Below, piece by piece: positions 27,701 to 31,400 of a stretch of DNA of 64,000 bases. Position 1 is the stretch's first letter. Each line of letters begins with the position of its first letter. Origin of the DNA: a virus (Duplodnaviria; Caudoviricetes); the IMG/VR virus record IMGVR_UViG_3300026512_000009, positions 124-64,123 of that record. The stretch is one strand, 5' to 3'. Both the position numbers and the translations under genes were made by a program. A model generated the notes under the pieces. The model was not told the origin of the DNA. It saw only the letters and a program-made list of their open reading frames with translations, and ran no database searches.

Positions 27701-28469
27701 TAGAAAAGCCTACTTTACAGGTGGAGCACTTGAAAACTTAAGTAATGTATTACCTGAAAAAGAAGAAGCAATAGGGTCTAATATAAATAACATAGAAAAA
27801 CTTTATGATAAACTAACAGGTAGAGGTGAGATAGATAAGTCATTAACTAAAGATAATATTAGAGATACATTAACTAAAAAACAAAACAATCTAACAGATA
27901 AAGAAATAGATCTATTAACAGATTATATAACAGATTTAATAGCTAATAAGCCTAGTATGTTAAATAACTTGATATCTGATCCTTTATTATCTGCTTTTAT
28001 AGGAGAAACTAAATTTAAAAACAGTAAAGACTTCTATACAAAACTTACTAGTCATGTAAATAGACAGTATCAAGCTTTATTGAATAATACTAATAAAACA
28101 CATGTAGTAGATATAGAAATACTAAAAGCAGTTAAAGGGCAATTAAAGAGTCTTAAATCATTAGTTAACTTTTTAAAAGATAAAGACATTTCGAATTTAA
28201 AACTACCTACAGAAAAAGAATTATCATTATTAGACTCTAATATTAAATTATTAGAACTGAGTAGTAAAAACACTCAAGTAGGTTTAAATGATATAATTAG
28301 ACAAGCCAAAGAAGTTGCTAAGACTATAAAATATGAGTTTGAAAATAGTACTAAGGCAGAAGAAGATAAAGGTACTGCGATGGAATATACGATATTGAAT
28401 GAGAAAGCAGATAAGAAAACGTTAGCAGAAATTTTTAAAAGACTAGATAAAGCAGGTATGATCTGTTAA
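24759..28469 (+). CDS. Large internal virion protein, probable equivalent of the vRNAP N-terminal domain
   Basis: 1236 aa; GEYTQEFLQ followed by an Ala/Gly-rich segment; directly precedes the polymerase gene; sole Cys is the last residue. Confidence 0.7.
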   Translation: MDKTIDLNGIQPTTVSKLKEKMDTQAITYMNKLNDSVKIIDPIEEAYKKDVRDITKAYDDNPEEAQKHLDLAKAYYEYSIIAREKNNLEQVNAANVNPYKINEGILDQEIEGINTRETNYKDAKKEDWANVGKRAAISIAKIPGELAGYAEKGLGALAGALLLSKSVEEHFDIAGDYILDKNDKLEKALNERWNVDKFWINKYNRESAELSKNSTGFIDSSVKGFIHGIESPFTAMAESTGEMATMILTPEVKLASYATRLAKGTKFVDNLASKALLKKATTDSVMNKIAKDAASFGLKVTKGTVKLADSAASKGWIVGFMHTNEVNEEYKKITGKDLDTKTKLLYFSIDSVISGADFNLLKAGTKDVLKNAMFTGSKDTLFKQLNVLASKQPAIVKAIGLTGIAATNIVKPFTKITASVAGEYTQEFLQEWHDYNIKNGNSSFALLTGETLKEIAGNAGSAAAGAGALHVVGTTPSATVKSVLGTMSLIKDVTDYTIRKHRMTNAAKIVDNDHLSVKDEHNKIAVEALRKTNEQNRVIYDRILKSKDLTKTLDELSKEHPDKSALFQDTVKAVKASNIDEKKVATLKQSLLNHINLEGKTVEETKAFTNELKSKLEEFDVESNSDKTLEEVISPDTKQLLEHIIKKSNSKVSIEELLKEKVSESSINLIKNTVDTYAKDIDSLTNNEDLTYSFLDTLEQAAIKYNDIITSKQIESVINTPLTEKEQNEAKAHIASLLDKAVFSNNQAIVQINGLSRPIHLGRTKTGPVTVNGVKVHNNTPNTTIVHNLMKEAKDKTKELASNLSLDKLVALKESLDNTKVNETNEEQLKKVKDVVNKALDIKVDAYNTLFGKKNETLTDENIDFGDSKTGPELFKGENSLQEEANPLKQTIVKQTYAKIAEGSSKEVPNKEVFESTIEAYADTSKSEIDLENTPDIQQTAQEAVKTVINEDISLDGKKAKEVIDALKKALEVANKEPEQNRKAYFTGGALENLSNVLPEKEEAIGSNINNIEKLYDKLTGRGEIDKSLTKDNIRDTLTKKQNNLTDKEIDLLTDYITDLIANKPSMLNNLISDPLLSAFIGETKFKNSKDFYTKLTSHVNRQYQALLNNTNKTHVVDIEILKAVKGQLKSLKSLVNFLKDKDISNLKLPTEKELSLLDSNIKLLELSSKNTQVGLNDIIRQAKEVAKTIKYEFENSTKAEEDKGTAMEYTILNEKADKKTLAEIFKRLDKAGMIC

Positions 28470-28478
28470 GGAGATTAA

Positions 28479-31400
28479 ATGAGTTGTATAACTAAAGAAG
28501 AATTTGAAAAGTATTTTACTACAATTGATAAAGAAGCTACTAAAGAAATGTTAGCTGAAATGTTGCATAGAAGACCTAAGTTTTCTATATGGGATATAAA
28601 AGCAGAAGACATTACAACATTAATTAAAGATATAAAAAGTAAAGTAGGATATGAAATAGCTTCTATACCTACTGTATTAGATAATATGACTAAAGTTAGA
28701 ATGAAAAGATTATTCTGGGAAGGTAATAGGGAAGTCTTAAATGAAAGCTTTTATGATATATTCAGTAATGATGTTAACGTAAAAGAGAATATCATTACTA
28801 TGAAACATATAATAGACAGTATAAGTAGTGAATTAGCTAAAGTTGATAGAGAAGGTTTAGATGTAAATAGTATTGTAAATAAAGAAACAGGTACTGTAAA
28901 TATTCCTTTAGCTAGATTAGCTACCGTAATCGGTAGAGAGATAGCATATACTCAAGGAATAGCAACTAAAGAGAATGGTAAATTAACTAAAGAAGAAGCT
29001 GCTTATAGAGAGATGCTATATTATAAGATAGGTATAGAACAAATAGAAAGACTAGAAAGACAAGGAATAGTAAAGACTGGAGAATTACCTGTAGTAAATG
29101 ATTTCTATTCTGAAGAAACTAAAGGTAAAGTAAATGTAACTAATATGCCTTCTGTATCTTTAGTGTTAGACAGGTCAATGTTTAATGCTGGAGAGATAGC
29201 AGATTTTAAAAAGGCATTGTTTAAAGGCTATAACGAATTAATAGGTAATAAATTATATACTGCACTTAACAGTACTATAAATCCACTAAGTAGATTAGTT
29301 AGAGAGACTTTAATTACTTATCCTCCTAAGGAAAAACCTTCAGCTAAAGAATTAGCTAAAGGAGATTACATGAAAGTAACAAATCTTAATAAATTGTTTA
29401 GGGATATTATGGAGACAGTAGATCTTAAACTAGATAAATCTTTTACTGATATGTTATTAACATTAGCTAGAGAATATGAAAACAATATGGATAAACCTTT
29501 TAGTACATTCATTAGAGAGTCTAACTTACCTGAAGTTGCTAATATAGCTAAAGTGTTAGGTTTACATGATACACACAGTAAAGCTAATAAGACATCTACA
29601 TTAGGTCAGAATGTATCTATGATGAGTCCTGTAGAGTCTGCAGTTAACTGGTTAATAGATCAAAAACTAGAAGAAGGTAGTTACCCTGAAGAAATTAAAT
29701 GGTTTCCTACATATGCATTTGTAAGGAATGCTAGATTACATGACTTAAACAGTTTTCTTAACGCTCAGCTAGAAAAGTTTGTTAGGGGAGCCATTAGATT
29801 AGGAGATCCTGTAACAATAGAAAAAGGAAGTATTGCAGAACAAGTTATGTATGCAGGTATAGAAGAGGTATTAGATGTAACTAAAGATGGTCAAACTGCA
29901 GAACAGGCTATAACAGAATTAGTAAACACTATTAAAGATTTAGATAAGAATAATAAAGATGATATATTTTATATCAAAGGTTTTGTTAATGCTATAGTAG
30001 AGGAGAAGGCTACAGAGAGAGCTTTATTAGATAAGATAGCTAGATTAATAAATACAGGTAAAGCATTTAAAGGACAAATGCCTACTGAAGTATACAAAGC
30101 ACTTATAGGTATAGCAGACTTAGTAAAAGCTAAAGATGAAAACACAATCAATACAACGTTTAATGTAGAACCGGATGCTACAGCTAGTGGGTTTTCTATT
30201 ATGATTATGCAGAAATTAAATACAGCTAATCCAGAACAAAGAGCAGCATTAATAGAATTAGCTAAAGGTTTAGGTATATTTAAAAGAGATAAAGATACTA
30301 AAACAGTAAGAGATCCTTACCAGTTAGCAGAAGAAGGTATTAAAAGAATATTAAACAATGAAACTAAATCAAATACAGAACTAGATTTCTTAGATGAAAT
30401 AGATAGTGAACTTAATGAAGATACAGACATTGAAAACAAGAAAGAAAAACTAAAAGATTTATTAGATAGTGGTATATTTAGAAATTTAAGAGATATAGCT
30501 AAAATACCTACAGTATCTCTTATATATCAACAATCAAAATCAGGAGCTAGAAGTTCAATAGCTAAAGATATAGCAGATACTTTAATTACAGCTTTAGAAA
30601 AAGGAGATGTAGAAGGTAGAAAAAAAGCAAATAAGTATGTAACTAAATTACTAGAAAATGAACATCTACCTGAAAACTATAATCCTTTAGAAGACTCAGC
30701 CCTAAAACGTAAACTTATTAAAGTTTTAAAATCTAAAGGACATATTCCTGAAATCTTATATTCTATTATCGAAGAAGAGGCTAAAGGTAAATATTTTGAG
30801 TCTTTCGATGAAAGAACTAAAGCTATGTTTGATGTAGCTAAGAATTTATCAACTAAGTTTAACATACCTTTAAAAATACTACCTGCTTTAACAGCAATAG
30901 ATTTCCGTAATGGAAGAAGAAGAGCAGACTTTAAAGACTTAATGCAATACGGTATTCCTTTAATGAAAAGAAATAACGTTATAGAAGAAGTTACTGATGA
31001 GAATGGTAATCCATATCAAGTAATGAGAGTAGAAGAAGTACCTCTGTTTACTACATTCGGTACATTAACTACACACAGTACAGATGAAGCTATATTAGCT
31101 AAAGCAACAATAGCTACTAAAAAAAGAGTAGGTAAAGATTTTAATATATACGGTATTCAAGATGCAATAATTGCTGATCCTAATATAGCAGCTATATTCC
31201 AAGAAGAGTATATAAAAGCTACTAAAGATGTGTTATTAGATTATGACACTAAAGAAGAACTACTTAAATCTATGGAATTAATGGTAGCTGAAATAGAGAG
31301 TAGAAAATTAGAAGAGAAAGATAAAGAAAGTTTAAAAGCAGCTAAAACTTTTATTAATAATATTAAACAAGAAATAGCAGAAGGTAAAACACAAAAACAA

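Follow-up and report, generated by a model that had tools for sequence, protein, structure and literature searches.

The window analysed here, a stretch of 64,000 nucleotides (nt) from a virus of the Caudoviricetes (Duplodnaviria; positions 124 to 64,123 of IMG/VR record IMGVR_UViG_3300026512_000009), contains a locus that is identified from its sequence as an N4-type virion RNA polymerase (vRNAP) encoded as two genes, the packaging and ejection of which are suggested by gene position and by depletion of cysteine. The two products, piece A (1236 amino acids, aa) and piece B (2142 aa), have one cysteine each, and these face each other across the break. The pair is kept in relatives of the window, and equivalent pairs are found at other breaks in polymerases of this type. 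Most probably a disulfide bond joins the facing ends of pieces A and B and replaces the missing peptide linker.

Split site and cysteine content

The following features define the split locus.

22946..23578, + strand: 210-aa cysteine-free protein at the N4 gp52 position; matches phrog_2646 (unknown function); role suggested by gene order relative to N4
23591..24757, + strand: 388-aa cysteine-free protein at the position of N4 gp51 (ejection protein); role suggested by position
24759..28469, + strand: piece A, 1236 aa, at the place where a one-piece N4-type vRNAP would have its N-terminal domain (NTD)
28464..28466, + strand: codon (TGT) for Cys1236, with which piece A ends
28467..28469, + strand: stop codon (TAA) of piece A
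28470..28473, + strand: GGAG ribosome-binding site, 5 nt ahead of the ATG of piece B, read directly
28476..28478, + strand: second in-frame TAA between pieces A and B
28479, + strand: start ATG of piece B
28479..34907, + strand: piece B, 2142 aa, vRNAP polymerase domain plus C-terminal domain (CTD)
28485..28487, + strand: codon (TGT) for Cys3 of piece B; this column is invariant across 36 full-length homologues (22-27% identity)
31698..31712, + strand: HExxH motif (H1074-E1075-x-x-H1078) at the start of the CTD of piece B, invariant in 36 sequences

The junction reads ...ATC TGT TAA GGA GAT TAA ATG AGT TGT... directly from the window. The same layout of stop, GGAG and ATG is present in three relatives (L002, L003 and L004, with 92, 90 and 73% protein identity), and because these are independent assemblies the split is real and not a sequencing slip; a preliminary description of the locus had already judged a single sequencing error unlikely. 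The GGAG of its own before the ATG argues that piece B is initiated by itself. Cysteines were counted in all 38 open reading frames (ORFs) of at least 150 aa in the window, and the count agrees with the preliminary description that the sole cysteine of piece A is its last residue (1236), that the sole cysteine of piece B is residue 3, and that the 210-aa and 388-aa proteins upstream of piece A have none. Its premise that the vRNAP of N4 is a cysteine-free single chain also holds, as N4 gp50 has 0 cysteines in 3500 aa; gp51 and gp52 likewise have 0. Family searches with the 388-aa protein gave no match, and its counterpart has 0 cysteines in all relatives where it is listed. The remaining ORFs of the window have a cysteine content of 0.81%, at which 27.3 cysteines would be expected in the 3378 aa of pieces A and B together; the actual number is 2 (Poisson P about 6e-10 for at most two). 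If each piece is taken to have one cysteine, the chance that they would fall within the last six residues of A and the first eight residues of B is about 1.8e-5.

Identity of the two pieces

The window covers an N4-like region of structural and replication genes, among them those for the small and large terminase, the portal, the major head protein and an N4 gp53-like protein, after which come the two small cysteine-free proteins, piece A and piece B; ThyX, ribonucleotide reductase and pieces of DNA polymerase A are encoded on the opposite strand. This gene order agrees with that of N4, in which gp53, gp52 and gp51 precede gp50, the vRNAP. In place of the one chain of about 3500 residues that characterizes an N4-type vRNAP, the locus has two ORFs of 1236 and 2142 aa.

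The C-terminal portion of piece B (residues 1786-2118, about 330 aa) matches the vRNAP family phrog_2206 (E 4.4e-19). Residues D566, K675, Y683 and D895 of piece B are invariant among the 36 full-length homologues, and are presumably the catalytic Asp residues of T7-type motifs A and C and the Lys and Tyr of motif B. BLASTP aligns residues 362-770 of piece B with residues 1369-1781 of N4 vRNAP in a colinear but weak match (E 0.57), and a piece B profile compared with the PDB gave weak matches to T7 RNA polymerase chains (E 0.014) and no N4 chain at E up to 1. An AlphaFold2 model of piece B residues 1-420 (pLDDT, the predicted local distance difference test score, 78.1) had no Foldseek match at E up to 0.001. 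A second look with VIA placed residues 5-278 of the model on residues 1027-1296 of N4 vRNAP (Z 6.1-6.5, root-mean-square deviation 4.6-5.8 Å, 190-198 residues aligned), and its top five rows were all N4 vRNAP, with middling Z values that are also possible from a common arrangement. The PHROG, motif, BLASTP and fold matches together place the start of piece B just after linker 1 of N4 vRNAP (residues 907-1006). N4 vRNAP also has an HExxH motif, at residue 2228, which falls in the CTD-C1 subdomain (PMC13434306). The HExxH of piece B is a conserved zincin-like site within an ejected polymerase.

An alignment of the piece A family (24 homologues, 12-16% identity) has only three invariant residues, M1, G460 and C1236. 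BLASTP of piece A against the N4 NTD gave low-complexity matches only (E 0.15), its profile had no PDB matches other than helical bundles and designed proteins, tblastn against the phage collection gave no match, and megablast of the whole A/B locus found nothing. The family PF21867, listed for many homologues in the protein collection, was not recovered by the Pfam scans made here and is not used.

Conservation of the cysteine pair

A HMMER search with residues 1-1200 of piece B over 1.84 billion representatives retrieved 40 proteins, which word-based hits increased to 43. A cysteine at residue 3-7 is present in 43 of the 43, without any other cysteine in 42, and Cys3 is one of 39 invariant columns among the 36 full-length homologues. 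The longest of the 40 HMMER matches is no longer than 2460 aa, and thus no fused form of the piece B family was found among them. A profile scan of IMG/VR identified 47 loci, to which were added the window and Alteromonas phage PT11-V19 (vB_AmeP_PT11-V19), a cultured virus that shares the window's break and for which a literature search found no paper. Both genes are whole in 32 of these loci (27 distinct A sequences); the 17 that were not scored comprise 11 with piece B cut at its 5' side by the contig end, five short C-terminal pieces and one three-piece case. In 32 of the 32 scored loci, piece A (911-1320 aa) has exactly one cysteine, 0-5 residues from its C-terminal end, and piece B has one cysteine at residue 3-8; in one locus (L026) a second cysteine appears in B only when the most upstream ATG is used. 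The 5'-truncated B pieces (603-1797 aa) contain 0 cysteines. The preliminary description had proposed a head-to-tail disulfide between the halves and had named conservation of the C-terminal and N-terminal cysteines as a check on it; the presence of the pair in every two-gene locus supports that proposal.

Independent breaks in other polymerases

The three-piece relative (contig IMGVR_UViG_3300010392_000731) has a further break within piece B, at the boundary between the polymerase domain and the CTD. A 5'-cut ORF of 900 aa (L011) is the polymerase domain (E 1e-43 to residues 111-990 of piece B) and ends in ...C-x-x-x, and the CTD is a separate ORF of 1280 aa with one cysteine, at residue 6. 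A cysteine at both ends of the middle piece was predicted beforehand, and the upstream DNA then confirmed it: the complete middle piece (1003 aa) has exactly two cysteines, at residues 3 and 1000, and piece A of this virus (912 aa) has its sole cysteine at residue 910. RNA polymerase PHROGs are matched by the middle piece (E about 4e-5). Between the polymerase piece and the CTD gene there are five ORFs, a distance of about 6.5 kb. The five intervening ORFs (L051 12688-18921, L011 9197-13039) encode proteins of 120, 108, 751, 595 and 413 aa, of which the three large ones (751, 595 and 413 aa) are rich in cysteine and have no PHROG match.

In the cultured Alteromonas phage AD45-P1 (vB_AmaP_AD45-P1), the break is at the linker between the polymerase domain and the CTD; the upstream piece (2495 aa) has its sole cysteine at residue 2493 and the downstream piece (1409 aa) has its sole cysteine at residue 4. 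Homologues of the two AD45 pieces were counted as two separate sets. Among 32 downstream-piece homologues, the 31 that are whole at the N-terminus all have a cysteine at residue 2-5; the remaining one, which has 0 cysteines, lacks the N-terminal part and begins at what is residue 199 in its relatives. Among 117 upstream-piece homologues, 113 are of the split type and all 113 end in cysteine, which is the sole cysteine in 111; one of the others has an extra internal cysteine, and one Cys-ending protein of 1629 aa has cysteines at residue 4 and at the last residue. The remaining four homologues (3154-4140 aa) have 0 cysteines and are taken to be fused forms because BLASTP finds both halves in each of them. 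For the AD45 type, therefore, the terminal cysteine is present in 113/113 split and 0/4 fused proteins (Fisher P 1.3e-7). Judged from these sequences, at least three independent break events, at two linker sites, carry a facing pair of cysteines.

Some AD45-type homologues have unusual domains. P0132 has a VgrG3-like C-terminal domain of the cell-wall hydrolase type (residues 263-442), and P0191, a fused and cysteine-free protein of 4140 aa, contains a superfamily-1 helicase domain as an insertion. The last residue of P0126 (3503 aa) is cysteine, but its final 1000 or so residues have no match to the AD45 CTD at E 1e-5; its break may lie elsewhere than in AD45.

Proposed mechanism

In the proposed mechanism, both pieces would have been purged of cysteine, as in N4, because their ejection route crosses the oxidising periplasm. 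The ends of A and B would dock after translation, and sealing or release of the particle would be followed by oxidation of the two thiols, which would link the chains by a disulfide. By standing in for the peptide linker of N4, the disulfide would cause A and B to be packaged together, and A-B would exit the capsid as a single thread with hardly any branching, in which A goes first and draws B after it. Because the cysteines are within a few residues of the ends, the joined chain would be almost unbranched, which suits a narrow channel. A gene split at the linkers would part the portion needed for injection from the portion needed for packaging, and an end-to-end bond would restore one chain. 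Upon arrival in the cytoplasm, host thiol systems would reduce the bond and free the polymerase from its leader. A role of the bond in co-packaging and co-ejection is proposed with lower confidence than the bond itself, and its reduction in the cytoplasm is the least certain part.

Several points weigh against this mechanism. For the split-vRNAP family the bond is predicted from the sequence pattern, and one and the same pattern fits an A-B bond, a set of A-A and B-B bonds, or a bridging metal ion. Phage assembly takes place in the reducing cytoplasm, so that the bond cannot be what first joins the pieces and non-covalent docking is needed. Such docking receives weak support from co-folding of residues 1-800 of B with residues 1057-1236 of A, in which the median score was 0.49 (runs of 0.49, 0.02 and 0.65) and the best of three controls scored 0.00, with contact agreement of at least 22% and partner pLDDT of at least 54 in the A-B runs. 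Of 80 solved complexes 58 attained the co-folding mark, as did 2 of 110 mismatched pairs, but scores of 0.60 or below account for only seven of the 80 solved complexes and for both mismatches. Comparison of the 24-sequence piece A profile with residues 1-1000 of N4 vRNAP by hhalign gave a probability of 1.5%; since homology could not be shown, it is by position and size that piece A is taken to be the equivalent of the N4 NTD. A Kyte-Doolittle scan of eight A proteins (19-residue window, threshold 1.6) found no membrane-spanning segment, so the picture of piece A as a membrane-inserted leader is borrowed from N4. The gel in the AD45 report shows two bands, as expected if it was reducing, the conditions being unstated in the available passages (PMC3821669). 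The disulfide solved in the virion of cyanopodophage A4 (described below) is an analogy for the A-B bond, because a search of the A4 proteins with the piece B profile detected no sequence homology.

A broader proposal is that terminal cysteine pairs are a general podophage device that re-forms one ejectable thread, in which the disulfide doubles as a redox-triggered release and the gene split is adaptive. Such a device would be usable at any break of a threaded ejection protein, not only in polymerases, cyanophage A4 being an example, and splitting would yield a polymerase that diffuses freely and is not tethered to the membrane, and would not be a neutral accident. This proposal is speculative and is considered less likely to be true than not.

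Alternative explanations

The two cysteines might not bond to each other: each might bond its counterpart in another copy of its own piece (A-A and B-B), or a third virion protein, or might hold, with further copies, a bridging metal ion. The sequence cannot say which thiol meets which, and the multiple copies of vRNAP in N4 virions (PMC13434306) make homotypic pairs sterically conceivable. Homotypic bonds would not, however, account for the occurrence of both cysteines together in 32 of 32 loci or for the new pair, one cysteine on each side, that each new break brings; the one solved case, that of A4, is heterotypic, from C-terminal end to N-terminal end (PMC12002296); and the ejection proteins that are the neighbours of A and B, as candidates for a third partner, are free of cysteine. 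This alternative is considered improbable. If, instead, the cysteines arose by chance or by an annotation artefact in a protein of generally low cysteine content, as ejected proteins are in any case, then a placement with a probability of about 1.8e-5 in a single genome would have to be repeated in lineages at about 25% identity, at three independent breaks, and with the observed division between split (113/113) and fused (0/4) proteins; the likelihood of this is negligible.

Other alternatives give the codons or the side chains a different function. The two cysteine codons could be take-off and landing sites of a ribosome hop, of the type known from the bypass in T4 gene 60, or could mark some other recoding, so that a fused chain would be made. 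In the window a TGT resembling a take-off codon directly precedes the stop, with an identical TGT 18 nt downstream, and the gap between the two cysteine codons is 9-37 nt in all scored loci. Against this, the codons are identical in 18 of 32 loci, compared to 19.4 expected by chance; cysteine is the last codon before the stop in only 10 of the 32; all three relative frames are represented (17, 3 and 12 loci); piece B of the window has a GGAG and ATG of its own; the paired cysteine codons of the three-piece relative are about 6.5 kb and five ORFs apart; and the AD45 phages produce two separate polypeptides of 270 and 175 kDa (PMC3821669). A hop also leaves unexplained why the amino acid is invariably cysteine and why all other cysteines were lost, and is very unlikely to be the explanation. 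The preliminary description had offered as its own alternative that the cysteines are acylation or modification sites for a phage cassette of acyl carrier protein and ketosynthase. This found no support in a Pfam scan of 44 ORFs of the window (some small ORFs being outside the scan), which found no ketosynthase and no phosphopantetheine-binding carrier protein. A cyanophage and two Alteromonas phages unrelated to each other obey the cysteine rule too, and no such genes are named in the listed parts of both Alteromonas records or in the whole record of Anabaena phage A-4L, so that acylation can be given almost no weight. A split intein was also considered and rejected: only 0-5 residues follow the cysteine of A and only 2-7 precede that of B, which falls short of the length that an intein fragment needs.

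Significance

Split virion polymerases are already in print, as is one disulfide between ejection proteins. What these sequences add is that a split vRNAP has its only cysteines on either side of each break, and that fused forms have none. No statement of such a rule for split virion polymerases was found in the literature searched, of which the supplements, notably that of a survey concerned with Pseudomonas phage DEV, may hold cysteine tables. How an enzyme of about 3500 residues is packed and threaded through a tail channel of about 30-35 Å is an open question for N4 (PMC13434306, PMC13492108). The split enzymes are a natural experiment, in which the chain has been cut at two flexible linkers and the only cysteines have been placed at each cut. 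That the cuts are at linkers and that each cut has its cysteines suggests that a linearly continuous chain is important for packaging or ejection, and that a peptide bond may be replaced by a disulfide. The published conclusion that the cysteines of AD45 vRNAP mean that it is not injected (PMC3821669) is reversed by the disulfide reading presented here. For annotation, a rule follows: a genuine split of a vRNAP gene carries the cysteine pair, which should be missing where a one-piece gene merely has an artefactual frameshift.

Other features of the window

DNA polymerase A is encoded in separate ORFs (48340-51419, - strand), as follows.

50757-51419, - strand: ORF with a 3'-5' exonuclease domain
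49715-50776, - strand: 353-aa ORF without a family match
48340-48906, - strand: C-terminal end of the DNA polymerase A polymerase domain

The interval of about 800 nt between 48906 and 49715 contains no ORF of at least 70 aa on either strand, and the DNA polymerase A gene could be split or interrupted. A 653-aa protein (61838-63799, - strand) has a weak match to PF00940 (T7-type RNA polymerase) that is under the cut-off (E 8.8e-4), and may be a second, non-virion polymerase. A 185-aa protein (38967-39524, - strand) has a weak match, just under the curated cut-off (E 2.2e-4), to the Tad2-like family of Thoeris anti-defence proteins. The gene of a T5orf172-domain protein (3208-3675, + strand; E 7.3e-6), immediately ahead of the small terminase gene, may be a homing-endonuclease-like insertion. 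A 638-aa tail-type protein (6334-8250, + strand) has a concanavalin-like lectin domain (E 3.6e-17) and, unlike the cysteine-free ejection proteins, 10 cysteines.

Comparison with known systems

N4 gp50 and the vRNAPs of other Schitoviridae (such as gp71 of Pseudomonas phage DEV) are, like pieces A and B of the window, encoded at the end of the structural operon behind cysteine-free ejection proteins, and have, after a T7-like polymerase domain, a large CTD that contains HExxH. Cysteine is almost absent from all of them; 191 schitovirus polymerase homologues have a cysteine content of 0.00075%, compared to 0.865% in proteomes (PMC11445570). N4 vRNAP consists of three folded units joined by two flexible linkers and is ejected as a loosely folded string; its NTD binds lipid and helps to form an inner-membrane complex, and its CTD is required for encapsidation (PMC13434306, PMC13492108). 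Multiple copies of it are held in the virion, where they are not ordered (PMC13434306). Both of the natural break sites coincide with the two flexible linkers of N4 vRNAP. The window differs from N4 in that its polymerase is encoded by two genes, broken at the position of linker 1 with one cysteine on either side, and in that sequence similarity is very low, as the BLASTP match of the polymerase domain indicates.

Alteromonas phages AltAD45-P1 to P4 also have an N4-type vRNAP in two polypeptides, of 270 and 175 kDa on gels, with a stop codon that was confirmed by resequencing (Garcia-Heredia et al. 2013, PMC3821669). As in the window, the sole cysteine of each polypeptide faces the break; unlike in the window, the break is at the linker between polymerase and CTD and not between NTD and polymerase, and the lineage is a different one, which tblastn with piece B did not reach. 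From the cysteines the authors concluded that injection of the protein does not occur, and in the available passages of their report they did not remark on the end position of these residues (PMC3821669).

In cyanopodophage A4 (Anabaena phage A-4L), electron cryo-microscopy of the two large ejection proteins gp27 and gp26 shows that gp27 inserts its C-terminal helix into gp26, with a disulfide from Cys1715 to Cys5 (PNAS 2025, PMC12002296). The record of Anabaena phage A-4L agrees: gp27 (1717 aa) has its sole cysteine at residue 1715, gp26 (1114 aa) has its sole cysteine at residue 5, and the genes are adjacent. The gp27-gp26 pair is thus like A-B in having adjacent genes, the first product with its sole cysteine close to the C-terminus and the second with its sole cysteine close to the N-terminus. 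Unlike N4 vRNAP, gp27 and gp26 form an ordered pentameric ring around the portal (PMC12002296), and the term RNA polymerase is absent from the main text of that paper in its available form. A search of the A-4L proteins, including gp26, gp27 and gp28, with the piece B profile (hmmsearch) gave E values of 0.05 or worse with negative bit scores, and A4 chains, gp26 included, are not among the listed fold matches of piece B residues 1-420. By analogy, the A4 case shows that the chemistry proposed for the split vRNAPs, a disulfide between terminal cysteines of successive chains, is real in a virion.

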